From the IMG/VR virus record IMGVR_UViG_2531839666_000019: 38,533 bases of DNA, one strand, 5' to 3'. Of the stretch, positions 1 to 34,915 are shown piece by piece. Within the stretch, counting starts at the first letter, position 1. Every line of letters starts with the position of its first letter. This stretch comes from a virus (Duplodnaviria; Heunggongvirae; Uroviricota; Caudoviricetes). Under the pieces are notes generated by a model that saw only the letters and a list, made by a program, of their open reading frames with translations, had not been told where the DNA came from and did no database searches. The position numbers and the translations under genes were made by a program.

Positions 1-405
1 TCATTGGTTTACTCCCACGTTAATTGCCGCCATTGCGCTTTGAGCAATATCCATGTCTTGTTCAACGCTACCGCCGCTGATGCCAAGCCCGCCAAGCAAT
101 TTTCCGTCACGCCAGAGGGGGAAGCCGCCACCAAAAGTGACGACTTTGCCTTGCATATGGCTTTCGAGCCCGTAAAGCGGCGCGCCGGGTTGCACGGTAT
201 CAGCAAGTTTGTGGGTTGCCGTTTTCATCGCCACGGCGGTCCAGGCTTTTTTCGGTGCCAGTTCACTGCTGACCAACAGGGCATCAGGCATCCGCCAGGT
301 AACACTTTCTGTTCCGTTGGCATCAACAATGCTGATGACAACGGGATGATGCGCCGCGCGATAAATGTACCAATTTCCGTGAGATAAATTACATCGCTGC
401 GGCAT
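1..405 (-). CDS. GlcG/DUF336-family (heme-binding-like) protein; flanking host gene or terminal cargo
   Basis: 134-aa ORF with motif FGGGFPLWRDGKLLGGLGISGGSVEQDMDIAQSA typical of GlcG/DUF336; stop codon is at bases 1-3 and ATG at 405. Confidence 0.55.
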   Translation of the reverse strand: MPQRCNLSHGNWYIYRAAHHPVVISIVDANGTESVTWRMPDALLVSSELAPKKAWTAVAMKTATHKLADTVQPGAPLYGLESHMQGKVVTFGGGFPLWRDGKLLGGLGISGGSVEQDMDIAQSAMAAINVGVNQ

Positions 406-424
406 TTCAATATCTGAAAAAGAA

Positions 425-997
425 TTACAACTTAGCTTGAGTTTGGAGTTCCTCTACAGGGTGATAACGATAAATCGTCGATATACCGATATCGTAAATA
501 ATTGCCAACTGTTTCCTGCTATAGCCATTTTTGATCAGCCTTGCTATTTGTTCATGTTGCTCTTTTGTCAGTTTCGGACGGCGTCCGCCAATACGCCCCT
601 GTGCACGTGCTGCCTCAAGTCCGGCCAGTGTTCGTTCAACTATTAATTCGCGCTCCATTTCCGCTAAAGCCCCCATGACGTGAAAAAAGAAACGTCCCAT
701 GGGTGTTGACGTATCAATGCTGTCTGTAAGACTACGGAAATTAACCCCTTTTCCCCGCAGTTCCTCAATAAGAGTGATAAGGTGTTTCATGCTTCTGCCC
801 AGCCTATCCAGCTTCCAGACAACGAGCGTATCTCCTTCTGATAACGTTCTGAGCAGCTTTTTCAATCCCGGTCGGGCTGACTTTGTTCCGCTGATTTTAT
901 CCTCAAAAATCAGTTCACATCCTGCGCAGTTCAGTGCGTTTCGTTGTAAATCTGTATTCTGGTCATTTGTTGACACACGAATGTAGCCAATTTGCAT
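425..997 (-). CDS. serine recombinase, DNA invertase of the Gin/Pin/Hin/Cin family
   Basis: Protein begins MQIGYIRVSTNDQNTDLQRNAL (catalytic Ser in the YIRVST motif), has a resolvase core and C-terminal HTH, and is very close in pattern to phage Mu Gin; start trimmed from ORF-track 1192 to the ATG at 997. Confidence 0.9.
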   Translation of the reverse strand: MQIGYIRVSTNDQNTDLQRNALNCAGCELIFEDKISGTKSARPGLKKLLRTLSEGDTLVVWKLDRLGRSMKHLITLIEELRGKGVNFRSLTDSIDTSTPMGRFFFHVMGALAEMERELIVERTLAGLEAARAQGRIGGRRPKLTKEQHEQIARLIKNGYSRKQLAIIYDIGISTIYRYHPVEELQTQAKL

Positions 998-1051: not shown

Positions 1052-1079
1052 AAGACGAAAACGTTGGTTTGGGGGAAGG
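1052..1079 (+). other. gix/hix-like crossover site A (variable left half, TT core at 1064-1065, conserved right half GGTTTGGGGGAAGG)
   Basis: Sequence GACGAAAACG-TT-GGTTTGGGGGAAGG matches the AAACC-NN-GGTTT architecture of Gin/Hin sites; the same right half recurs at sites B, C and, inverted, D. Confidence 0.7.
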
Positions 1080-1530
1080 CTCTGCACTACCTGTTGGTGT
1101 GCCTGTTCCGTGGCCGTCAGCCACACCGCCAGCAGGGTGGCTGAAATGTAACGGCGCAGCATTTTCTTCTGAAATGTACCCCAGGCTGGCAAAGGCTTAT
1201 CCGACCAATAAATTACCGGATTTACGGGGCGAATTTATCCGTGGCTGGGATGACGGACGAGGTATTGATGCAGGACGAGAGATACTTTCATTTCAGGAAG
1301 GCACTATCGTCTCCGGTTTTGATGATAATGATACTGGGGATATCAGTTCACTCAGCTCAACACAATACGGATTTGGTGACACTTTAACCTCTAATCAATG
1401 GGGGGCCATAAATGGCAAAAAGTGGATATTTGATGCATCCAGTAAAGGTGCCCAAAAATATGACTGGTGGGCTTATGTATCAGCTCGTCCGCGTAATATT
1501 GCATTTAATTACATCGTAAGAGCGGCATAG
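1066..1530 (+). CDS. silent alternative tail-fibre C-terminal cassette A (no ATG start; expressed only after inversion)
   Basis: Begins GEGSALPVGVPVPWPSATPPAGWLKCNGAAF, the same sequence that follows site D in the expressed tail fibre; ends with conserved RPRNIAFNYIVRAA; ORF-track start is TTG inside the gix site. Confidence 0.75.
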   Translation, partial: GLGEGSALPVGVPVPWPSATPPAGWLKCNGAAFSSEMYPRLAKAYPTNKLPDLRGEFIRGWDDGRGIDAGREILSFQEGTIVSGFDDNDTGDISSLSSTQYGFGDTLTSNQWGAINGKKWIFDASSKGAQKYDWWAYVSARPRNIAFNYIVRAA

Positions 1531-1551
1531 AAACGTTGGTTTGGGGGAAGG
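1524..1551 (+). other. gix/hix-like crossover site B
   Basis: ATAGAAACG-TT-GGTTTGGGGGAAGG, core at 1536-1537, immediately after the stop codon of cassette A. Confidence 0.7.
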
Positions 1552-1969
1552 CTCTGCACTGCCCGTTGGTGTGCCTGTTCCGTGGCCCTCAGCCACACCG
1601 CCAACAGGCTGGCTGAAATGTAACGGTGCAGTATTTTCTGCTGGGAAGTACCCCAAACTGGCACAGGCTTACCCCACCAATAAATTACCGGATTTACGGG
1701 GCGAATTTATTCGTGGCTGGGATGATGGACGTGGAGTGGACAATGGGCGAGCATTATTAAGCAGGCAGGAGGCTACAAATTTTTCTTATTACGGAGGTAA
1801 TTTCGATATTGGGTCTGGTCATTCAATCAATAACTATGACCAAATCGTTGACAACCAACCTGGATTCTCCCGTTTTTCATTTGCAGGTCCTTCGCGAGGC
1901 GATGGGGTTAATTTTGTGACCATTCGTCCTCGTAATATTGCGTTTAATTACATCGTAAGGGCAGCATGA
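1538..1969 (+). CDS. silent alternative tail-fibre C-terminal cassette B
   Basis: Same conserved N-terminal block and C-terminal RPRNIAFNYIVRAA with a different central region; starts in gix site B. Confidence 0.75.
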   Translation, partial: GLGEGSALPVGVPVPWPSATPPTGWLKCNGAVFSAGKYPKLAQAYPTNKLPDLRGEFIRGWDDGRGVDNGRALLSRQEATNFSYYGGNFDIGSGHSINNYDQIVDNQPGFSRFSFAGPSRGDGVNFVTIRPRNIAFNYIVRAA

Positions 1970-1990
1970 AAACGTTGGTTTGGGGGAAGG
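1963..1990 (+). other. gix/hix-like crossover site C
   Basis: CATGAAAACG-TT-GGTTTGGGGGAAGG, core at 1975-1976, immediately after the stop codon of cassette B. Confidence 0.7.
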
Positions 1991-2483
1991 CTCTGCACTA
2001 CCTGTTGGTGTGCCTGTTCCGTGGCCGTCAGCCACACCGCCAGCAGGGTGGCTGAAATGTAACGGCGCAGCATTTTCTTCTGAAATGTACCCCTGGCTGG
2101 CAAAGGCTTATCCGACCAATAAATTACCGGATTTACGGGGCGAATTTATCCGTGGCTGGGATGACGGACGGGGAATTGATTCAGGGCGTTTCTTGCTTAA
2201 TGCACAACCACATTCGGTTATGGATCATACTCACTATATGGAGTTATGGACCGGTGAAGGGCTTGCTGCAAACAGCACCCGTGCAGGAACAAACCCTGGT
2301 ATACTGGCTACATACGGTGATGGCGGGATTGTTAAAACAGATGAGTCAGGTGTAAAAGTTCCATCTTCACTACGTGCTATTGGCACTCGTGGTGTTTATA
2401 GATTAGGTGCCAACGGAGGGAATACAGGAACGGAAAACCGCCCCCGTAATATTGCGTTTAACTATATTGTAAGGGCTACTTAA
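1977..2483 (+). CDS. silent alternative tail-fibre C-terminal cassette C
   Basis: Same conserved block (about 125 bp identical to the expressed copy) and C-terminal motif; stop overlaps the tfa start (TAATG at 2481-2485). Confidence 0.75.
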   Translation, partial: GLGEGSALPVGVPVPWPSATPPAGWLKCNGAAFSSEMYPWLAKAYPTNKLPDLRGEFIRGWDDGRGIDSGRFLLNAQPHSVMDHTHYMELWTGEGLAANSTRAGTNPGILATYGDGGIVKTDESGVKVPSSLRAIGTRGVYRLGANGGNTGTENRPRNIAFNYIVRAT

Positions 2484-3100
2484 TGAATAATGCTGCTGCA
2501 GTACTTGATCAGAATGGTATCGCTATAACTGCAGGCGATATTACCGTTTATAACTACGATGCTGAAAACCGTGAATATCTCTCTGCCACTGTTGAATATC
2601 TCGCTTATGGTGTTGGAATTCCGGCTCACTCATGCATTGACGCGCCACCAGAAAAACGCCCCGGCTTCGCTGTCTGTCGTGATACCGACCAGAACATCTG
2701 GAAATATGTTCCAGACCACAGAGGCGAAACGGTTTACAGCACAGAGAATGGTAACGCTGTGCAAATCACACAGCCGGGAGATTACCCTTCAGATACGACG
2801 GTGAAACAGCCAGCTACCATCTATGATGTCTGGGATGGTGAGACCTGGGTGACAGATACGAGACGACAGCACGCAGCAGAACTGGAAGCTGCCGGAGCGC
2901 ATCGTCAGCAACTTGAGGAACAGGCAATGGCATCTGTTGAGCTTATTAATCTCAAACTACGAGCCGGACGCCGATTGACGCCCCAGGAGACGGAAAAACT
3001 AAACGCCGTGCTTGATTTCATAGATGCGCTTAATGCGACTGACATCAGCACTGCACCGGATATCAACTGGCCGGAAATGCCTCTGGCAGCAGCCAGTTGA
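2483..3100 (+). CDS. tail fibre assembly protein (Tfa/U-like chaperone)
   Basis: 205-aa protein with the typical Tfa N-terminal region; lies directly downstream of cassette C and converges on the expressed tail fibre. Confidence 0.75.
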   Translation: MNNAAAVLDQNGIAITAGDITVYNYDAENREYLSATVEYLAYGVGIPAHSCIDAPPEKRPGFAVCRDTDQNIWKYVPDHRGETVYSTENGNAVQITQPGDYPSDTTVKQPATIYDVWDGETWVTDTRRQHAAELEAAGAHRQQLEEQAMASVELINLKLRAGRRLTPQETEKLNAVLDFIDALNATDISTAPDINWPEMPLAAAS

Positions 3101-3106
3101 GTATAA

Positions 3107-4075
3107 TTAAGCCGCCCTCACGATATAGTTAAATGCAATATTGCGGGGGCGAGTTTCACTACCACCAGTGTTACCAATACTTCCTCGTGAATGAAGCGTT
3201 GGTGATGGAATCAAACTCCCTCCTGTATTTGCAGCATCAAGTCCCCGGCCTTGTGAATATGTTTTTTTGAAAATTGTGGCCAACTCCCATTCATCCTTTG
3301 TGTCATACCCATCGTTAGCTACAACAATATGGCGGTGTTTTTCCAGCATCCCAGTTTGAAAGCTCAATAAAGCACGTCCTGCATCAATCCCTCGCCCGTC
3401 ATCCCAGCCACGGATAAATTCGCCCCGTAAATCCGGTAATTTATTGGTCGGATAAGCCTTTGCCAGCCAGGGGTACATTTCAGAAGAAAATGCTGCGCCG
3501 TTACATTTCAGCCACCCTGCTGGTGGTGTTGCTGAGGGCCACGGAACGGGCACACCAACGGGCAGCGCAGAGCCTTCCCCCAAACCAAGGTTTTTGACAA
3601 ACAGCGCAGGATCAGGAATATCTGCGCCGTTCTGGTCTTTAGCCAGCTTTTCCGCCAGCTTGTTCAGTACCGTAGTCGCAAAGTTTGGATCATTACCGAG
3701 AGCGTCAGCCAGCTCTTTAAGCGTATCCAGTGTCTCAGGGGCGCTGCCTGCAAGCGCCGCAAGTGCTTTGGCCACAAACTCCGTCGTCGCCAGCTTTTTG
3801 CTGTTATCGCCATTTGCAGGTGTAGGTGCTGTTGGTGTGCCGGTGAATGCCGGACTGGCTTTCGGTGCATACTGGGCATGCGGGTCTGCTGCCGCGATGT
3901 GTTTCGCAAGGTCAGCCCCGCCTTTTTCAACCTGTTGCTTCAGGTACAGCGTGCGGCTGGCCAGTTGTTTACCCTGACGGTTAGAAATTCCGTCAGGCCC
4001 GCCCAGAACGGGGTCAGAGACCTCAATCTGGTAGATGCCGTCTTCCCACTGTGGGGTTTCAGGTAGATTTGCCAT
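3107..4075 (-). CDS. tail fibre protein (constant N-terminal part plus currently expressed variable C-terminal cassette D, 3107-3586)
   Basis: 322-aa protein; N-terminal tail-fibre region followed after site D by the GEGSALPVGV block and the RPRNIAFNYIVRAA terminus. Confidence 0.85.
   Translation of the reverse strand: MANLPETPQWEDGIYQIEVSDPVLGGPDGISNRQGKQLASRTLYLKQQVEKGGADLAKHIAAADPHAQYAPKASPAFTGTPTAPTPANGDNSKKLATTEFVAKALAALAGSAPETLDTLKELADALGNDPNFATTVLNKLAEKLAKDQNGADIPDPALFVKNLGLGEGSALPVGVPVPWPSATPPAGWLKCNGAAFSSEMYPWLAKAYPTNKLPDLRGEFIRGWDDGRGIDAGRALLSFQTGMLEKHRHIVVANDGYDTKDEWELATIFKKTYSQGRGLDAANTGGSLIPSPTLHSRGSIGNTGGSETRPRNIAFNYIVRAA
3573..3600 (-). other. gix/hix-like crossover site D, inverted relative to A-C, inside the expressed tail-fibre gene
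   Basis: Plus strand reads CCTTCCCCCAAACC-AA-GGTTTTTGACAA, a near-palindrome resembling hixL; core at 3587-3588; encodes FVKNLGLGEG of the tail fibre. Confidence 0.75.
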
Positions 4076-4077
4076 AA

Positions 4078-4656
4078 TTAACTGCTCCCGTGGTTGTAAC
4101 TACCGTCATAACGGGTAGTACTGTTGTATCGAATGGCGACAGACTGATATTCCAGGCTTGCCAGATGGCAGCGAGCCGGAGCAAAGGCAGCGAGCGTCTG
4201 ACGTAACAGCGCTGCCTGATCATTAGTGATGGGCTGTTGAAGGATGACCCGATAGACTGCCCAGGCTTGTGCATCGCCATGGACGAAAAGTCCGTTGTAA
4301 CTGTGTTTACCGTCGTAGCCGATCTGCCCCGTACCTTCTATCAGCTCTACTTCGCCAAAGCCAAAACGGCGGATAATTTCCCGGATTGACCACGGCGTTC
4401 CTTTATAGCGGTGTAGCTCGATAGCGGATTTGATAAGCATGCGGCGTACATCGTCCGATTCCGCCAGTTCCCAGCCATCGCCGAACAACGAGAACTGCTC
4501 GCCCAGCCATGGCAGCGCGGAACTGTCGACGATATCGACGAGACAGACCATCAGTACGCTCAGGTCGATGTTATCCAGCCGTTCGGCCAGTCTTCCCAGC
4601 GTTTTGAGACTGATATCACCCTCAAGCGGTGGCGGTAGTCGTAGCGCCTCAGCCAT
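4078..4656 (-). CDS. tail/baseplate protein, Mu gp48-like (DUF2313/YmfQ-like)
   Basis: 192-aa ORF in the conserved position between baseplate J-like and tail fibre genes. Confidence 0.6.
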   Translation of the reverse strand: MAEALRLPPPLEGDISLKTLGRLAERLDNIDLSVLMVCLVDIVDSSALPWLGEQFSLFGDGWELAESDDVRRMLIKSAIELHRYKGTPWSIREIIRRFGFGEVELIEGTGQIGYDGKHSYNGLFVHGDAQAWAVYRVILQQPITNDQAALLRQTLAAFAPARCHLASLEYQSVAIRYNSTTRYDGSYNHGSS

Positions 4657-5752
4657 CGGACACCCCTGTCACGTTAAGAGTGATTGCCGTACAGTTTGCC
4701 CATTCGTTTTCTGCAACCACCCGCAGTGCCGGTGTCACCAGTTCAACCTGGTACACCCCGGAAACGGACAATGCACTGATAATCTGGCTGGGGACAATAT
4801 CGCGTCCCAGCGTGGCGGCACGTGATGCCACCCAGTTCTGTATGGCGCTGTTAGCGTTGTCCTTTACCGACATTGCATCCTGATCACGATAGATCGTAAT
4901 CCTGGCTTCAATGGTGTAATCCACCTGAACAGGTGTTTTAGCCCGCACGGTATCAGTGAGTGGTCTGACTTTTTCGTCAGAACAGAAACTCTCTACCAGA
5001 GTGAGGATACTGCTGTCTGGCAGACCAGTGCTGAGCAGTGGATACAGCTCGACAGTACCGGGAACGGGAGAAAGAACAGCGACGTCGACAATACTGGGAT
5101 GCGCCCCCATGGCATGAAAACGGTATGCACCACGGCTTCCGGCATTGGTGAATGACTCCGGGGCCAGCCTGATACGCTCCCGGAGTCGGTCATTGTCTTC
5201 CTGCTCTGAACCGCCAGTGCTGGCCGTCAGATTGGTCACCAGCAGGTCAACGTTATCAATCTCATCAAGCAGCTGACTGACCTGAGCCGGTTGCCAGCCG
5301 TTGCCAGAGGTACCCGGCTCAGTACAGGTGGCAGGGGCATTGACCAGTTGCAAACCGGCCTTCAGCACTACATCTGTATCGGTGGCAAAAATCACGCTGT
5401 CGGAAGCGCTGACGCGGGTGCCTGCCGGGATCAGCACATCAATGGCCAGTGCCTCATCCACAGAGAACTGAAGTGTGGTGGTGGCAGGCTGCGCGGGAAG
5501 GCGGTATACACCAACCAGTTCTCCGAGGTAATCAATCATCGGCTCCCGGGAAAAGGCGACCAGATTCAGCTTCGCCGCCTCCTGTACCGCCACCCTGACC
5601 AGCATTTCGCGATAGGCCCACAGATCTATTAGCAGACGTTCTGCCTGTGCCGGGTACAACGTTTTGCCGGTATCCGCTTCATATTTCGCAATCATTTCTG
5701 CCGTGATTTTATCGGCATCGAGTTCAATAAAATCGGGTTCTGTCAGCGCCAT
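4649..5752 (-). CDS. baseplate J-like protein (Mu gp47-like)
   Basis: 367-aa ORF, position and size typical of baseplate J family; overlaps neighbours by a few bases in operon fashion. Confidence 0.75.
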   Translation of the reverse strand: MALTEPDFIELDADKITAEMIAKYEADTGKTLYPAQAERLLIDLWAYREMLVRVAVQEAAKLNLVAFSREPMIDYLGELVGVYRLPAQPATTTLQFSVDEALAIDVLIPAGTRVSASDSVIFATDTDVVLKAGLQLVNAPATCTEPGTSGNGWQPAQVSQLLDEIDNVDLLVTNLTASTGGSEQEDNDRLRERIRLAPESFTNAGSRGAYRFHAMGAHPSIVDVAVLSPVPGTVELYPLLSTGLPDSSILTLVESFCSDEKVRPLTDTVRAKTPVQVDYTIEARITIYRDQDAMSVKDNANSAIQNWVASRAATLGRDIVPSQIISALSVSGVYQVELVTPALRVVAENEWANCTAITLNVTGVSDG

Positions 5753-6161: not shown

Positions 6162-7037
6162 TTAAATTACGAAAACCTTGACGATAAGTTCTCCGTCTTT
6201 AGAAACTCTCTTCCCCTCAAGATCAGATTTCAGCCCCTCAGAATTAGTAATAAGCTGGTTCGGATCGTAGATGACACACCAGAGATTTTTGCAATCAGAG
6301 TGCCGACGATAATGCTCTATATCGATAATAAGTTCATCGCCGATTTTCTTTGCATGAGAACGATCACGAACAATTTTGGTTTCCAGTACTAATTTATGCG
6401 CAGGTAACAAAAAATCCATTCGAGTACTTGAACCAGCGTAACTTGGAGTAAACTCTTCTGGGCGGATGTCCTGAACCCATGGTCTGAGCAATGCATGGAG
6501 AAGGTCTTGCACGTCATATTCATTGCTAAAAGATAATGACTGGCTTCCTTTTCGCCTATGAGTAAGTGGATGCATTGCTCGCTGTAAGCCTTTGACCAGC
6601 CTTTCCAGTAAGTTCTCAACTTTTTCTGGCATTACTGGCTGTTGATAAGTAATTATGGTCTCTGGGTAATCCATATTGTGTGACGGGATGTGGCCTTCAG
6701 GCAACACTCGACCAAAACGATAATATCTAAGTCCATTCTCTTGTAACACAGCTTCAATTCTGTCTCGTTTTTCCTTCCATTCTGCATATTCGGGAGTACC
6801 TTCTTTTGGAGGTAAATCCATAAACTCCTCAATTACTCCGCCCAGAACTGCCAGACTATCTGTATCTGGATCTTGCCCTGCAAGAAATAACCAGTCTTTC
6901 CATTTTGTACTATGAGATCCTGCCGGAGGGTTTCCTGGTGCTCCCGAAGTAAGAAATAACGTATCTAAAGCTGCATGAGAGCCTGAGTTAGCAATGACAT
7001 CGCCAACTACTTTACATAAGGATCTTGATAACCGCAT
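6162..7037 (-). CDS. inserted accessory gene in the baseplate block; candidate PD-(D/E)xK-fold nuclease-like protein
   Basis: 291-aa ORF, visibly AT-richer than flanking genes, flanked by 71-bp and 81-bp spacers; C-terminal region contains D-x11-E-x-K (MDFLLPAHKLVLETKIV). Confidence 0.5.
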   Translation of the reverse strand: MRLSRSLCKVVGDVIANSGSHAALDTLFLTSGAPGNPPAGSHSTKWKDWLFLAGQDPDTDSLAVLGGVIEEFMDLPPKEGTPEYAEWKEKRDRIEAVLQENGLRYYRFGRVLPEGHIPSHNMDYPETIITYQQPVMPEKVENLLERLVKGLQRAMHPLTHRRKGSQSLSFSNEYDVQDLLHALLRPWVQDIRPEEFTPSYAGSSTRMDFLLPAHKLVLETKIVRDRSHAKKIGDELIIDIEHYRRHSDCKNLWCVIYDPNQLITNSEGLKSDLEGKRVSKDGELIVKVFVI

Positions 7038-20233: not shown

Positions 20234-21727
20234 TCAGCCGTTGTCACGCTCATGCAGACGCCCCCAGATATTTGCCACAAAGAGAATGCGGGCCAGCCGC
20301 TCCTGCAGATCGTCCGTGTTCATCTGAGGGTAGAGCTCCGCCAGTTCGCCCAGCAGCTCAGACGGGTTAACCCCGTTTTCGACCCGCCTGAACAGAGGTG
20401 CCAGGACGGGTTCCAGCGTGCCATTTAACACACCTCCGTTCATCAGAATGTCCAGCGCGTCGTCAAGCTGCTGTTGTGCATCATGATCGGCGCTTATCGC
20501 CTCGGCAAACTCCGCAGGCACTGCCCCGTCCGCAACCGGTGCATCAGAGAGGTCAATATCCCCCTCCTGCAGCTGGTACTCCCGCATGAAGTACTGCGGG
20601 GTCAGGCGTAGTCCCGCGCGGGTGAGTTTTTCGTCGCGGGTGGCACGGGTGTCATCAATGGCCTCCTGTTCCCACATGGCCCAGACCGGACACGGCACAT
20701 CGCCGAAGTTCAGGGTGACCACCGTTCTGATGACCTGATTCACTGCCGCCTGAATGATGTCCGCATCCGCATCGCGGATATCAGCCGTCACCTCCAGCCC
20801 GGCCTGTGCAGAGGCCTTGTTACTGTTCGCTTCCGTGGTCTGATTCTGACCGAGTAATGCAATGGAGATCTCACTGCGTGACAGCGTGATCAGCTCGCGG
20901 AATACCTCGCTGCTGTCCGCCTTGCCATCCGCGGCTTTGAGTTCAATGCTGCTGTCATCGGGGATGGCGGCCACAGCGTCCTCCACCATCTGCTCCATGG
21001 AGTCCAGCAGTTTTTCAATCTCTGCATCATTTGCACCCCTCGGGTGCTTACCGATCACCCACGGGGAGCCAAACTTTTCGGCAAAGCGGAGCCAGAATTT
21101 CATCCCGCCTTTCTTGAAGGCGACCGGCCAGAAGCACATGGACAGGTCCGGGAAACCGTAAGGATTGTCATACGAGGCATCCTGTGCCGGCACCACGAAT
21201 TTTGACGGTGACAGCAGCTCACCCTCCACACCCGCATCACGCGCCCGGAAGCGCAGGCAGTTGTCCGTATCAAACTGAAACCACTCAGGCGGTTTGCCGA
21301 CAATATCCGTCACCGCCCACGCCCTGACCGAACGGCCCCACATGATTTCACAGGGCTGATACCCGTAGAGCACGGCATCGCTCATCTCACCGATGATGCG
21401 GGACAGATCCAGATCGTCGAGCATGTCGCGGATGAAACGGAAGACCCGGGCAGAAGCGTGACCGCGCTCCAGTCCACGCTCCAGCGATTTGAGCGCTGCT
21501 TTACGTCTGCGGATACAGCCTCCGACCAGCGGGTCGGTGCGCAGTTCGCGGTAGATACGGATATCCCGTCCCTGAGCCTTGAGAATGGGATCAGGATTGG
21601 GCAGATACATGCCCAGTCCGTAAAAGTCGATCGCGCGGCTGCGGGAGGCAATCTGCGCGGTCAGTGATTTCTGAGGCTCAGAAAAAGCAACAAATTCATC
21701 GGGTGAAACCCAGATACCCCTCGCCAT
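20234..21727 (-). CDS. portal protein (Mu gp29-like, DUF935-like)
   Basis: 497-aa ORF directly after the terminase large subunit, typical size. Confidence 0.8.
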   Translation of the reverse strand: MARGIWVSPDEFVAFSEPQKSLTAQIASRSRAIDFYGLGMYLPNPDPILKAQGRDIRIYRELRTDPLVGGCIRRRKAALKSLERGLERGHASARVFRFIRDMLDDLDLSRIIGEMSDAVLYGYQPCEIMWGRSVRAWAVTDIVGKPPEWFQFDTDNCLRFRARDAGVEGELLSPSKFVVPAQDASYDNPYGFPDLSMCFWPVAFKKGGMKFWLRFAEKFGSPWVIGKHPRGANDAEIEKLLDSMEQMVEDAVAAIPDDSSIELKAADGKADSSEVFRELITLSRSEISIALLGQNQTTEANSNKASAQAGLEVTADIRDADADIIQAAVNQVIRTVVTLNFGDVPCPVWAMWEQEAIDDTRATRDEKLTRAGLRLTPQYFMREYQLQEGDIDLSDAPVADGAVPAEFAEAISADHDAQQQLDDALDILMNGGVLNGTLEPVLAPLFRRVENGVNPSELLGELAELYPQMNTDDLQERLARILFVANIWGRLHERDNG

Positions 21728-31968: not shown

Positions 31969-33738
31969 ATGAATGCTGCCCTGACTGAACGACTGGTTTA
32001 TGTCGCCCGCGCGGCACGTGACGCGGGGCATGGTAAACGCGGTGCAATATACGACGCTGCCTGTGCTGAACTTGGCATGTCCCGCGCCACTCTGCTGCGC
32101 AGGCTGAAGGAGGTATCTGTGACTGATAAACGCAAAAAACGCGCCGATGCCGGGCGCAGCGCCCTGACCCGCGACGAAGCCGCGCTGATATCTGCCACAC
32201 TGCGTGAGGCCACCCGCAAGAACGGTAAGCGTCTCTATTCCATCGCAGATGCAGTGGAAACCCTGCGGGCTAACGGCTTTATCTCCGCAGGCAGAACAGA
32301 TGAAACCACCGGTGAGTTTTTCCCGTTGTCCGAAGATGCCATCAGTCGTGCCTTGCGTAACTATGGCCTGCACCCGGAACAACTGGATGCCCCTGCGCCG
32401 CATACCGAAGTGGCCAGTCTGCATCCCAATCACGTCTGGCAGATTGATGCCTCGCTCTGCACGCTTTACTACCTGAGCAATGGACACAAAGGGCTGCAGG
32501 TGATGGACAGCGCGAAGTTCTACAAGAATAAACCCGCTAACCTTGCCCGTATCGCCAGTGACCGCGTGTGGAGTTACGAGATTACCGACCATGCCAGCGG
32601 CTGGATTTACGTTGAGTATGTGACGGGTGCGGAATCCGGTGAGAACCTGTGTTCTGTGCTTATCAACGCCATGCAGGAGCGTGGCGGCGCAGACGTGCTG
32701 CACGGCGTGCCGAAAATACTCTATCTCGACCCCGGCTCGGCAAACACCGCGGGTATGACGAAAAACATGTGCCGCTCACTGGGCATCGACCTGATAGCGC
32801 ACAAGCCGCATAACGCCCGCGCCACCGGACAGGTGGAAAAGGCGCGTGACATTATCGAACGCAAGCTGGAGCCGGGTCTGAAATTCCGGCCGGTTCACAG
32901 TCTGGAAGAACTCAACGCGCTGGCCGCGAAATGGCGTAGCCACTTTAACGCAACAGCTGTTCACAGCCGCCACGGTAAAACCCGCACGGATATCTGGCTG
33001 AAGATTACTGCTGAGCAGCTGAAAAAAGCGCCTTCCGTTGAGGTATGCCGTGAACTGGCTGTGGCGACACCAGAACTCCGCAAAGTCACGCCAAAACTTC
33101 GTGTCTCGTTCCGGGGCACTGAATTTGACGTATCAACGGTACCGGGCGTACTGGTTGGTGAAAAACTGATGATTACCCGTAACCCATGGCGCAGCGATGT
33201 GGCACAGGTGGTTCTGACCGGTGAGGACGGCCACGAGACGTTCTTCCTGGTCGAAGAGGTCAGAAAGAACGAGTTTGGCTTTGCTGAAGGCGCGGCGGTA
33301 TTTGGCGAAAGTTACAAAGCCCTGCCGGAAACACCGGCACAGACGGCGGCAAAAGAAACCGAAGCGCTGGTCACCGGTACAGACAACGCCGCAGATGCAG
33401 CTGCCGCACGCAAGGCGAAGGCGCTGCCGTTCGGCGGGCGGCTTGACCCGTATAAACATATTGATGACGCCACACTTCCGGCCTGTATACCGAAGCGCGG
33501 TCAGGTCTCTGATGTACGCAGACCGCGCACTGAACAACGTCCCATGACTCATGTGGAGGCCGCGAAAGCCCTGCGCGATAAGTTCAGCGCCGACGGCCTT
33601 ACCTGGACGCCGGAACATTACCGCCAGTTAACGGCACAGTACCCGGACGGCGTACCGGAAGCCGCACTGGATGAAGTAATGGCCACGCTGACCACGCCGG
33701 CCCGCAGCAGCGTTATCAGCATTGTTAACGGCAACTGA
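31969..33738 (+). CDS. DDE transposase (Mu A-like, integrase-core family)
   Basis: 589-aa protein with DDE-type residues in HVWQIDAS and YLDPGSAN; followed by an overlapping AAA+ partner gene. Confidence 0.8.
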   Translation: MNAALTERLVYVARAARDAGHGKRGAIYDAACAELGMSRATLLRRLKEVSVTDKRKKRADAGRSALTRDEAALISATLREATRKNGKRLYSIADAVETLRANGFISAGRTDETTGEFFPLSEDAISRALRNYGLHPEQLDAPAPHTEVASLHPNHVWQIDASLCTLYYLSNGHKGLQVMDSAKFYKNKPANLARIASDRVWSYEITDHASGWIYVEYVTGAESGENLCSVLINAMQERGGADVLHGVPKILYLDPGSANTAGMTKNMCRSLGIDLIAHKPHNARATGQVEKARDIIERKLEPGLKFRPVHSLEELNALAAKWRSHFNATAVHSRHGKTRTDIWLKITAEQLKKAPSVEVCRELAVATPELRKVTPKLRVSFRGTEFDVSTVPGVLVGEKLMITRNPWRSDVAQVVLTGEDGHETFFLVEEVRKNEFGFAEGAAVFGESYKALPETPAQTAAKETEALVTGTDNAADAAAARKAKALPFGGRLDPYKHIDDATLPACIPKRGQVSDVRRPRTEQRPMTHVEAAKALRDKFSADGLTWTPEHYRQLTAQYPDGVPEAALDEVMATLTTPARSSVISIVNGN

Positions 33739-34915
33739 GGAGGGAAACATGCTGGTACTGAAGCAGCAACTGAAAGAGGCCCGTATTCCACAGGCGGTGG
33801 TGGCGAGAGCTGTCGATGTTTCTGAGGCCACGCTGGCCCAGATTGTGAATCATAACGCGTGGCCCCGCACCAGCCCCGGAGAAGTGCGCCGGCGTCTTGC
33901 GTCCTGGCTGGAAAGTCAGGGGATTGATACAGCGAAGAGTTTTGATGCTGTACAGGGCGCGGCCACTCCCCGTACAGCGGGTACCACAGATAAAACGAGC
34001 CTCAGTGAGGAAGAGAATATGTTACTCAAAAAACAGGTGTTATTCCCGGCAACCAAAAAAGCGTTTGGTCTTTTCCGTGACCCGTTCGCCGACGAAGCCA
34101 TGCAGGGTTCTGATGATGTGTTCACCACCCCGGACATTCGCTACGTGCGTGAGGCGTTGTACCAGACAGCCCGTCATGGTGGGTTTATGGCCGTCATCGG
34201 TGAGTCCGGTGCGGGTAAATCCACGCTGCGCCGCGACCTGACTGAACGTATCAACCGCGAGAATGCGCCGGTAATTGTTATCGAGCCATACATCATCGCT
34301 ATGGAAGACAACGATGTGAAAGGGAAAACCCTGAAGGCAGCAGCTATTGCCGAAGCCATTATCAGTACCATCGCACCACTGGAAAGCATCAGACGCAGTC
34401 AGGACGCCCGCTTTCGCCAGTTGCATCGCGTCCTGAAAGACAGCAGCCAGGCGGGGTTCAGCCACGTTCTGGTGATTGAGGAGGCCCACAGTCTGCCCAT
34501 TCCGACACTGAAACACCTCAAACGCTTTTTTGAGCTGGAGTCCGGTTTCAAAAAACTGCTGTCCATCGTGCTGATTGGCCAGCCGGAACTGGCGACAAAA
34601 CTGTCTGAACGCAATATGGAAGTCCGTGAAGTCGTTCAGCGCTGTGAGGTGGTCGAACTTCTGCCTCTGGACAATAACCTTGAAGAGTTTCTGACGTTCA
34701 AACTGCAACGGGCAGGTAAACAACTGACGGACATTATGGACGCCAGTGCAGTGGATGCCATACGTGCCCGCCTGAGCAATCCGGGAAGTCATCGTAAAAA
34801 TATGGTCAGCCTGTTGTATCCGCTGGCCGTCAGTAACCTGGTGATAGCCGCCATGAATCTGGCCGCTGAAATCGGGGTTCCACAGGTCAACGCTGACGTT
34901 GTCAAAGGGGTTTAA
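33722..34915 (+). CDS. transposition ATPase (Mu B/TniB-like AAA+)
   Basis: Walker A VIGESGAGKST and Walker B HVLVIEEAH; N-terminal HTH. Confidence 0.8.
   Translation: MLTATEEGNMLVLKQQLKEARIPQAVVARAVDVSEATLAQIVNHNAWPRTSPGEVRRRLASWLESQGIDTAKSFDAVQGAATPRTAGTTDKTSLSEEENMLLKKQVLFPATKKAFGLFRDPFADEAMQGSDDVFTTPDIRYVREALYQTARHGGFMAVIGESGAGKSTLRRDLTERINRENAPVIVIEPYIIAMEDNDVKGKTLKAAAIAEAIISTIAPLESIRRSQDARFRQLHRVLKDSSQAGFSHVLVIEEAHSLPIPTLKHLKRFFELESGFKKLLSIVLIGQPELATKLSERNMEVREVVQRCEVVELLPLDNNLEEFLTFKLQRAGKQLTDIMDASAVDAIRARLSNPGSHRKNMVSLLYPLAVSNLVIAAMNLAAEIGVPQVNADVVKGV

Follow-up and report, generated by a model that had tools for sequence, protein, structure and literature searches.

The DNA analyzed here, a window of 38,533 nucleotides from a tailed virus, carries the invertible host-range segment of a Mu-like transposable E. 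coli prophage. We propose that its fiber tips are exchanged by inversion, that each tip contains a split collar domain, and that the 5′ repeats of the tip cassettes are homogenized; to this account as a whole we give a probability of roughly 0.85. The tail fiber gene (4075-3107, minus strand) joins a constant part to one of four 3′ cassettes, which are interchangeable, and a Gin-like serine invertase would recombine oppositely oriented sites to generate 12 isomers with four alternative fiber tips. Each cassette is proposed to encode a complete C-terminal module built like domains D10/D11 of T4 gp37: the 5′ block would form the first part of the collar, the chain would then leave into a variable distal receptor-binding insertion, and after its return the conserved C-terminal strand RPRNIAFNYIVRA is predicted to complete the collar. 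The ∼200-nt collar repeats would additionally be homogenized by homology-driven gene conversion.

The invertible segment and its isomers

The invertase matches Pfam Resolvase (E = 5e-51) and HTH_7 (E = 1.5e-13), belongs to PHROG 125 (DNA invertase) and aligns end to end, over 183 residues, with the phage Mu Gin structures 4m6f and 3uj3 (E = 6e-90). Its gene adjoins the cassettes and starts 55 bp from the crossover site of cassette A, as in Mu. Each cassette begins at a 26-bp crossover site of the hix/gix type, which is imperfectly palindromic with a central dinucleotide. All four sites listed in Table 1 read TTCCCCCAAACC-AA-N12 and agree with published sites and their consensus (PMC4134206 Table 3); the right half-site GGTTTGGGGGAA and the central TT are identical to those of the EC958 Phi2 site (PMC4134206 Table 3).

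Within the expressed ORF, the crossover site encodes ...VKNLGLGEG... at the constant/variable junction, and all four cassettes are in frame from the codons GGG GAA GGC. On this reading, inversion swaps the 3′ end of the fiber gene in frame. The TTG “starts” assigned to cassettes A, B and C are spurious: each of these cassettes is the silent 3′ end of a gene, and this anatomy explains why such ends get annotated as separate “phage tail protein” genes. The fiber gene comes after P2 I-like (4078-4656) and baseplate J (4649-5752) genes, and its 322-aa product matches a tail fiber family (PHROG 3100, E = 1e-132) over residues 1-322. A single copy of tfa is present in the segment, coupled to cassette C, whose stop codon overlaps the tfa start (TAATG), and convergent with cassette D. 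Tfa of cassette C and Tfa of cassette E share 61% identity and diverge more in their N-terminal part, which is suggestive of a Tfa divergence tied to cassette type. Judged by these features, the locus fits the Din family (Gin/Hin/Cin/Pin/Min) of invertible tail-fiber switches; by analogy, switching would depend on Fis and an enhancer, which in this family usually sits in the 5′ portion of the invertase gene.

Table 1. Features of the invertible segment (positions in the window)
Feature	Position	Strand	Details
Gin/Pin/Cin-type serine DNA invertase, 190 aa, starts MQIGYIRVSTNDQ	425..997	-	Pfam Resolvase + HTH_7; Gin structures; PHROG 125
Crossover site, head of cassette A, 26 bp	1052..1077	-	minus strand = TTCCCCCAAACC AA CGTTTTCGTCTT
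Silent cassette A, 152 aa + stop	1072..1530	+	5′ collar block 1072-1263; center ∼1297-1485; 3′ motif 1486-1527
Crossover site, head of cassette B, 26 bp	1524..1549	-	
Silent cassette B, 141 aa	1544..1969	+	5′ block 1544-1735; 3′ motif 1925-1966
Crossover site, head of cassette C, 26 bp	1963..1988	-	
Silent cassette C, 166 aa	1983..2483	+	5′ block 1983-2174; 3′ motif 2439-2480
Tail fiber assembly protein (Tfa)	2483..3100	+	Pfam Caudo_TAP, E = 2e-26; PHROG 105
Cassette D, 157 aa, expressed at present	3107..3580	-	5′ block 3580-3389; 3′ motif 3151-3110; stop 3109-3107; Pfam Collar at residues 174-221 of the full fiber protein
Crossover site in expressed fiber gene, 26 bp, TTCCCCCAAACC AA GGTTTTTGACAA	3575..3600	+	inverted relative to the other three sites
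Constant 5′ part (Sc) of tail fiber gene	3601..4075	-	with cassette D, 322-aa ORF 3107-4075

Public E. coli assemblies contain the same phage, defined by zero mismatches in tfa, the invertase and at least 1.5 kb of Sc/I/J, in six of the 12 possible isomers, which express D, A or B. All six belong to the 12 that can be reached by inversions. In E. coli 8178, FEA3 and JNEC-KY202 the expressed fiber gene joins its constant part to cassette A, and strain DEF2 expresses cassette B. Since these six isomers occur in independent assemblies, we conclude from comparative evidence that the switch is active. The isomer junctions change exactly at the 26-bp site in all isomers: the flank-specific half-site (GACGAAAACG, CATAGAAACG, CATGAAAACG or GTCAAAAACC) swaps, while the cassette body stays with its head. 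For two sister loci, EC958 Phi2 (PMC4134206) and the E2348/69 prophage (PMC4272514), inversion evidence from PacBio or PCR has been published.

Conserved cassette ends and the collar domain

In a protein alignment of the four cassettes, columns 1-76 are almost wholly invariant and all four sequences end with RPRNIAFNYIVRA(A/T), confirming the shared C-terminal motif of the first-pass annotation. Over the first 192 nt past the crossover site, A and C are 98.4% identical, and both share 94.8% with D, which bears out the near-identical 5′ sequence reported for these three cassettes. The length of this block had been given as 125-190 bp but is really ∼192-220 bp, and the region had been ended at 3370, which cuts off cassette D's own 5′ block (3389-3580, with the crossover site at 3575-3600). 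Cassette B is indeed more diverged, with 88-90% nucleotide identity to the others and seven amino acid changes, compared with none or one among A, C and D. Uninterrupted identity extends over at most 111 nt (A-C), 128 nt (C-D) and 73 nt (A-D). A repeat search returned inverted repeats of 220-232 nt, in which D is 95% complementary to A, 94% to C and 85% to B; this similarity is far above chance.

The central 57-82 residues, in contrast, show pairwise identities of only 21-29% at the protein level and can hardly be aligned; the variation lies in the middle of the cassettes, as had been claimed. The centers differ in length instead of showing scattered-site changes, and by this reasoning we rejected a diversity-generating retroelement or hypermutation. 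The wider family was represented by 121 full-length domains, taken from clusters formed at ≤50% identity. Here residues 7-75 and 144-157 mostly stay under 1 bit of column entropy and the stretch separating them reaches 3-4 bits, although this profile is partly circular because the domains were picked with a profile that weights the conserved blocks. Almost all of these domains (115 of 121) end at the C-terminus of their protein.

Conservation at both ends combined with variation in the middle is what a discontinuous domain hosting a variable insert would produce. The Pfam domain Collar (PF07484) matches all four cassettes (E ∼1e-14 to 1e-15; 52-56 bits at a gathering cut-off of 24), and a cassette profile matches the T4 gp37 tip (2xgf, E = 5e-20) via both conserved ends: the N-terminal block aligns to gp37 residues 811 to ∼881 and the C-terminal motif to the last gp37 residues, ...NIAFNYIVRL. 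The profile also matches T4 gp12 (1ocy, 5iv5), and RPRNIAFNYIVRA aligns with VKNIAFNYIVRL of gp37 and RPWNISLNYIIK of gp12. In gp37, the collar D10 is discontinuous (residues 811-881 and 1010-1026), and the receptor-binding needle and tip, D11 (882-1009), are inserted into it (PMC6957217). By this homology, the conserved 5′ block and the C-terminal motif appear to make up a single discontinuous collar domain, each contributing one half, and the variable center appears to correspond to D11 and would mediate receptor binding. The D10/D11 architecture thereby supports the earlier localization of the receptor-binding determinant to a short central region. By analogy, the cassettes are also expected to adopt a trimeric fold.

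Structure prediction, suggested by the first-pass annotation, was run on cassette D. The AF2 monomer reaches a pLDDT of 88-95 at residues 10-55 and 87 in the last strand, and a fold comparison with the PDB ranks 2xgf_A first (E = 3e-6) and gp12 next. Confidence is confined to the collar parts; the center has a pLDDT below 50, and the model was rejected as a guide to it. The short tail fiber of phiTE (9cuy/9mjn) is the best sequence match in the PDB (E = 7e-22), yet was discarded as a template, since only residues 3-92 are modeled in the map (PMC11972413) and the collar region has no structure there.

The centers of cassettes C and D each contain one HxH (HTH in C, HRH in D), the metal-binding motif of gp37-type inserts; it sits where gp37 has its first HxH and is present in ∼40% of the family members, and cassettes A and B lack it. 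Because the inserts are shorter than in gp37 (57-82 versus 128 aa) and HxH is restricted to C and D, their fold may differ from a gp37-like needle. The split architecture would provide a structural rule for both interpreting and engineering the host-range cassettes that are common in E. coli prophages: keep the collar halves and swap the insert.

Probable homogenization of the 5′ block

The two conserved ends differ at the DNA level. The synonymous difference is 0.29 in the 5′ block versus 0.70 in the 3′ motif, while the nonsynonymous difference is comparable (pN 0.02 and 0.03, respectively); these values derive from 529 nonindependent pairs from 11 independent loci, and the 3′ motif offers only ∼10 synonymous sites. 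Within the window, pS of the 5′ block is 0.04-0.30. Identity of the 5′ block ignores cassette type (93% within the same type versus 91% between different types), whereas that of the 3′ motif follows it (95% versus 80%). Six copies of the same phage show 21 distinct differences, of which 19 lie in the 5′ blocks, at nt 14-111 from the crossover site; these mostly switch to states present in a paralog. Along the block, pS is 0.20-0.26 over the initial 129 nt and rises to 0.41 over the final 63 nt. These patterns point to gene conversion in the 5′ block, presumably by a homology-driven mechanism: the 3′ motif would be conserved as protein only, and the 5′ block homogenized as DNA as well. An earlier proposal that the long 5′ block could support homologous exchange independent of the invertase holds as far as gene conversion is concerned, on the evidence of pS, cassette type and patches; whole inversions free of the invertase lie outside this evidence. 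Each cassette repeats ∼200 nt of collar-coding DNA because the crossover site sits upstream of the collar.

Identity of the 5′ block is 91.7% within and 90.9% between loci. With so small an excess we rejected locus-level concerted evolution; homogenization looks pool-wide rather than locus-specific. For the patches in L013 and L004, simple reciprocal crossovers were likewise rejected, since the expected reciprocal products are absent and short-patch conversion fits better.

Could the patchy differences be assembly or polishing artefacts from cultures of mixed isomers? In L013, the expressed cassette A departs from the A of the window only at nt 17, 20 and 44. These are precisely the positions at which B and D share a base that differs from A, the pattern expected of a majority-vote consensus, and some patches seen in a single assembly could have arisen this way. 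As a general explanation we consider this unlikely. Three assemblies produced by two laboratories (L002, L011 and L012) carry an identical 8-nt patch in cassette A (nt 17-65); A sits there in three different isomer contexts, both expressed and silent, and the patch includes 62G, a state absent from every paralog in that phage. Moreover, no assembly artefact can produce the low block pS across the 11 independent loci.

Even less probable is that gene conversion plays no part and the collar fold alone conserves the 5′ block as protein, the near-identity of the A, C and D DNA being incidental. The block is kept as protein across the 121 family domains, it matches Pfam Collar, and the differences among A, C and D are nearly all synonymous. 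However, the equally constrained 3′ motif does not share the about threefold synonymous deficit of the 5′ block, which makes pure protein constraint unlikely as the sole cause; neither the indifference of the block to cassette type nor the clustering of paralog states among copies of one phage fits it.

For the 3′ motif, one could argue that RPRNIAFNYIVRA is conserved as a docking site for the single shared Tfa chaperone instead of completing the collar, given that one tfa serves four cassettes. This is very improbable: the same motif ends T4 gp37 (NIAFNYIVRL) and gp12 (NISLNYIIK), fibers that rely on gp38 and gp57A and not on a Caudo_TAP protein; its residues belong to the collar domain D10 in gp37; Tfa reportedly binds the distal part of the fiber with its N-terminal domain (PMC9608196); and tfa is antisense to the fiber operon in six of the 12 isomers. 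We give least credence to the idea that the long inverted repeat itself is the recombination substrate, the invertase needing ∼200 bp or switching being mainly RecA-driven: although repeats of 220-232 nt exist and conversion patches within them mark homology-driven events, all isomer junctions shift precisely at the 26-bp site with exchange of the flank half-site, cassette B is used as readily with a block only 85-90% identical (L012), and Din-family invertases are known to require no more than 26-bp sites and an enhancer (consensus sites in PMC4134206 Table 3).

Gene conversion in a domain-coding repeat raises the tentative idea, against which we would still bet, that the collar-coding 5′ block has two roles, as a protein domain and as a portable homology arm kept uniform by conversion. 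If true, Mu-like, P2-like and P1-like phages would be able to acquire, lose and exchange cassettes by way of this arm; loci with two to six cassettes are seen, and the same cassette types occur behind different constant parts. One possibility is that conversion starts at aborted double-strand breaks of the invertase, which are repaired from a paralogous cassette. Protein-only constraint on the 3′ motif, set against added DNA homogenization of the 5′ block, would make this locus a small, clean case of concerted evolution beside a site-specific recombination site.

Comparison with known systems

The locus resembles the Din family, namely Gin and the G segment of Mu, Cin and the C segment of P1, Pin of e14 and Min of p15B, in its Gin-close serine invertase, the 26-bp sites at the constant/variable junction of the fiber and the adjacent tfa. 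The classical multi-site example is Min of p15B, which has six crossover sites; in P1, the C segment carries inverted repeats of 0.6 kb whose outer ends hold cix. Unlike Mu, in which Sv is served by the Tfa U and Sv′ by U′, a single Tfa accompanies four Collar-type cassettes here; no Collar domain was found for Mu Sv or Sv′.

T4 gp37 (PDB 2XGF) and gp12 (1OCY, 5IV5) share the discontinuous collar with a variable receptor-binding insertion between its parts. The C-terminal strand of gp37 is nearly identical (NIAFNYIVR), and in cassettes C and D an HxH lies where the insert starts. T4 differs in its insert of 128 aa (57-82 aa here, with A and B lacking HxH), in its chaperones gp38 and gp57A and in having no inversion switching. 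R64-type shufflons also provide one gene, pilV, with many alternative 3′ ends through multi-site inversions, but use the tyrosine recombinase Rci on sfx sites, whereas a serine invertase acts here on another site type and another target gene; the locus is shufflon-like in logic only.

Among the closest systems is EC958 Phi2 (Forde et al. 2014, PMC4134206), with the same right half-site GGTTTGGGGGAA and central TT next to a DNA invertase gene. Its site lies inside a 227-bp inverted repeat of 96% identity (220-221 nt and 94-95% here), and its inversion was observed in PacBio reads (PMC4134206). It was described with two alleles on a 2067-bp segment, compared with four cassettes, 12 isomers and a Mu-like transposable backbone in our case; the architecture of site, repeat and Collar was already published for EC958 Phi2 (PMC4134206). 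Multi-cassette shuffling is likewise known, from the shufflon-like P2-like prophage of EPEC E2348/69, where Goldberg et al. (2014, PMC4272514) report four coexisting variants with three alternative C-termini at a locus containing three inverted repeats, verified by WGS and PCR; that study does not analyze the domain logic of the cassettes. The P2-like E2348/69 locus L005 carries the same cassette family, with a D-type cassette convergent with tfa, and is a candidate for the published locus: the description fits, in a paper that gives no coordinates. It differs from ours in its P2 H-type constant part (521-aa fiber) and its three cassettes. Host-range switches of this kind are well known in phages; the locus described here is an ordinary example, and the current understanding of such switching stays unchanged by our results.

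Conserved ends, variable centres and a split collar domain

A protein alignment of the four cassettes bore out the earlier observation that conserved ends enclose a variable middle. The first ~76 residues form nearly invariant columns among cassettes A–D and all four end with RPRNIAFNYIVRA(A/T), whereas the centres are scarcely alignable (21–29% identity over 57–82 residues). Over the first 192 nt, the DNA of the 5′ block is 98.4% identical between A and C, 94.8% for A–D and C–D, and 88–90% between B and the other three, and the encoded residues show 0–1 changes when A, C, and D are compared, against 7 for B. Inverted repeats between D and the other cassettes span 220–232 nt (D versus A 95%, versus C 94%, versus B 85%). 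The shared 5′ block, first put at 125–190 bp, is closer to 200 bp, and the interval first assigned to the cassettes, ending at 3370, leaves out the 5′ block of D itself (3389–3580); the remaining description was accurate. In the RefSeq entries of 13 related E. coli prophage loci (L001–L013), silent cassettes are regularly annotated either as “missing N-terminus” pseudogenes or as separate “phage tail protein” CDSs, an artefact noted earlier for EC958 (PMC4134206).

Features of the cassette locus and its surroundings
Feature	Coordinates	Strand	Description
GlcG/HbpS-like host gene	1-405		truncated; adjoins prophage end
Serine invertase	425-997	-	Resolvase + HTH_7 domains
Cassette A	1072-1530	+	homologous gene end, head to tail with B and C
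Cassette B	1544-1969	+	homologous gene end, head to tail with A and C
Cassette C	1983-2483	+	homologous gene end, head to tail with A and B
Crossover sites of A, B, C	1077-1052, 1549-1524, 1988-1963	-	26-bp motif
tfa (tail fibre assembly)	2483-3100	+	Caudo_TAP; ATG overlaps stop of C
Cassette D	3580-3107	-	3′ part of 322-aa tail fibre ORF 4075-3107
Crossover site of D	3575-3600	+	26-bp motif, within expressed gene
P2 I-like, baseplate J and W genes			upstream of fibre gene
Mu-type portal	20234-21727		in window
rve transposase	31969-33738		in window
AAA ATPase	33722-34915		in window

All four cassettes match Pfam Collar, and a four-cassette profile matches the tip of T4 gp37 (2xgf, E=5e-20) and T4 gp12 (1ocy, 5iv5). 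In the profile match, the N-terminal block aligns with gp37 residues 811–~881 and the C-terminal motif with the last residues of gp37 (VKNIAFNYIVRL) and gp12 (RPWNISLNYIIK). In gp37, domain D10 consists of residues 811–881 and 1010–1026 and has a collar fold common to gp12, while the receptor-binding needle and tip, D11 (882–1009), is an insertion into D10 (PMC6957217). Cassette conservation ends exactly at this boundary (K881/AHSHS versus ...EK/HRH... in cassette D). An AF2 model of D reaches a pLDDT of 88–95 in the N-terminal block and 87 in the last strand, with a poor centre, as would be expected of a monomer from an intertwined trimer; among PDB folds the model most resembles 2xgf_A (E=3e-6), then gp12. 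Taken together, these matches, alignments, and the shared domain boundary indicate a single split domain, with the conserved blocks as its two parts and the variable centre as a distal insertion between them. The first-pass annotation had placed the receptor-binding determinant in this centre; by analogy to gp37 and gp12, the centre would bind the receptor.

An HxH motif occurs in C (HTH, ~2215–2223) and D (HRH, ~3331–3339, minus strand) but in neither A nor B. Both copies lie exactly at the gp37 insert start, the position of the first iron-binding HxH. The cassettes may split into metal-binding and metal-free insert classes.

A search with the cassette profile returned 16,936 cluster representatives at E≤1e-3. 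The protein C-terminus coincides with the domain end in 115 of 121 full-length domains. In these domains, which were picked by a profile giving weight to the conserved blocks, column entropy is mostly <1 bit at residues 7–75 and 144–157 and 3–4 bits between, and ~40% carry HxH at residues 82–84. Four family members (P0122, P0128, P0155, P0196) are 1271–1667 aa long and each has 3–5 separate profile matches; these could represent several collar modules per ORF or a gene-calling fusion of cassettes. Eleven E. coli loci contain 11 cassette types, with 2–6 cassettes per locus, behind Mu-like or P2-like constant parts, and in a P1-like phage related DNA likewise adjoins the invertase.

Homogenisation of the 5′ block

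Protein constraint is equal in both conserved blocks (pN 0.02 and 0.03), but the synonymous difference is lower in the 5′ block (0.29) than in the 3′ motif (0.70); among the window's own cassettes, it is 0.04–0.30 in the 5′ block. Identity of the 3′ motif follows cassette type (same type 95%, different types 80%); that of the 5′ block is independent of it (93% and 91%). Between copies of this phage, 19 of all 21 distinct differences fall within the 5′ blocks, at nt 14–111, and most are switches to the state of a paralogue. An 8-nt patch in A recurs unchanged in three assemblies, made by two laboratories and representing three isomer contexts (L002, L011, L012), which speaks against an assembly artefact. 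Patches unique to L004 or L013 could be artefacts. Strand exchange by serine invertases takes place at a 2-bp core, so that such patches require a homology-driven process. These data support the suggested homologous exchange in the form of gene conversion of the 5′ block; inversion independent of the invertase lies outside this support.

Cassette switching and prophage context

Every cassette is headed by a 26-bp site, TTCCCCCAAACC-AA-N12, whose right half-site and central dinucleotide are identical to the published EC958 Phi2 crossover site (PMC4134206 Table 3). The alignment of the invertase to Mu Gin runs end to end (E=6e-90). The same phage was found in six arrangements, with 0 mismatches in the invertase, tfa, and at least 1.5 kb of the constant fibre part and the I and J genes.

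Arrangements of the same phage (X, C-tfa-D unit; + and -, orientation of the unit in window coordinates)
Locus	Arrangement	Expressed
Window	A+ B+ X+	D
L004	B+ A+ X+	D
L002, L003	X+ B- A-	A
L011	X- B- A-	A
L012	A+ X- B-	B
L013	B+ X- A-	A

In all arrangements, the flank-specific half-site is swapped at the 26-bp site, and a simple model of inversions between oppositely oriented sites reaches 12 isomers, including all six observed. The cassette switch is active.

The four cassettes are accompanied by a single tfa, which is translationally coupled to C (TAATG at 2481–2485) and in every case convergent with D. The unit of C-tfa or E-tfa followed by opposite-strand D is unbroken in all 13 related loci. 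Six of the 12 isomers, that of the window among them, carry tfa antisense to the fibre operon, so D would be produced with no co-transcribed Tfa; the same would hold for A and B in half their isomers.

The transposase, AAA ATPase, portal, and tail gene context identify a Mu-like transposable prophage. The GlcG/HbpS-like gene at its end neighbours pduP, and the L004 and L013 strains share this insertion site. In mouse E. coli from Zurich and Harbin, an identical phage (L002, L011, L012) lies elsewhere, within a SWIM zinc-finger gene and beside yehR; the differing sites fit Mu-like transposition. Within the baseplate module, beside the W-like gene, 6162–7037 (minus strand) encodes a protein of 291 aa whose restriction endonuclease domain is of the DpnII/MboI type (PF18742, E=4e-47); RefSeq copies are annotated as PD-(D/E)XK nuclease. 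The gene resembles a moron or defence gene within a tail operon.

Comparison with known systems

Setting the enhancer aside, the locus has the defining features of the Din-family switches (Gin, Cin, Pin, Min) and operates like them; the presence of a serine invertase as recombinase rules out an R64-type shufflon. In the sister locus EC958 Phi2, the 26-bp site lies within a ~220-bp inverted repeat encoding a Tail Collar domain, and inversion was seen directly in PacBio reads (PMC4134206). Multi-cassette shuffling is published for an E2348/69 prophage, where inversion was seen directly by WGS and PCR (PMC4272514). The split-collar explanation and the synonymous-site contrast are tidy yet unsurprising. 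The initial observation was real and rightly interpreted, this kind of locus is already known, and T4 gp37 and gp12 follow the same domain logic as the cassettes.
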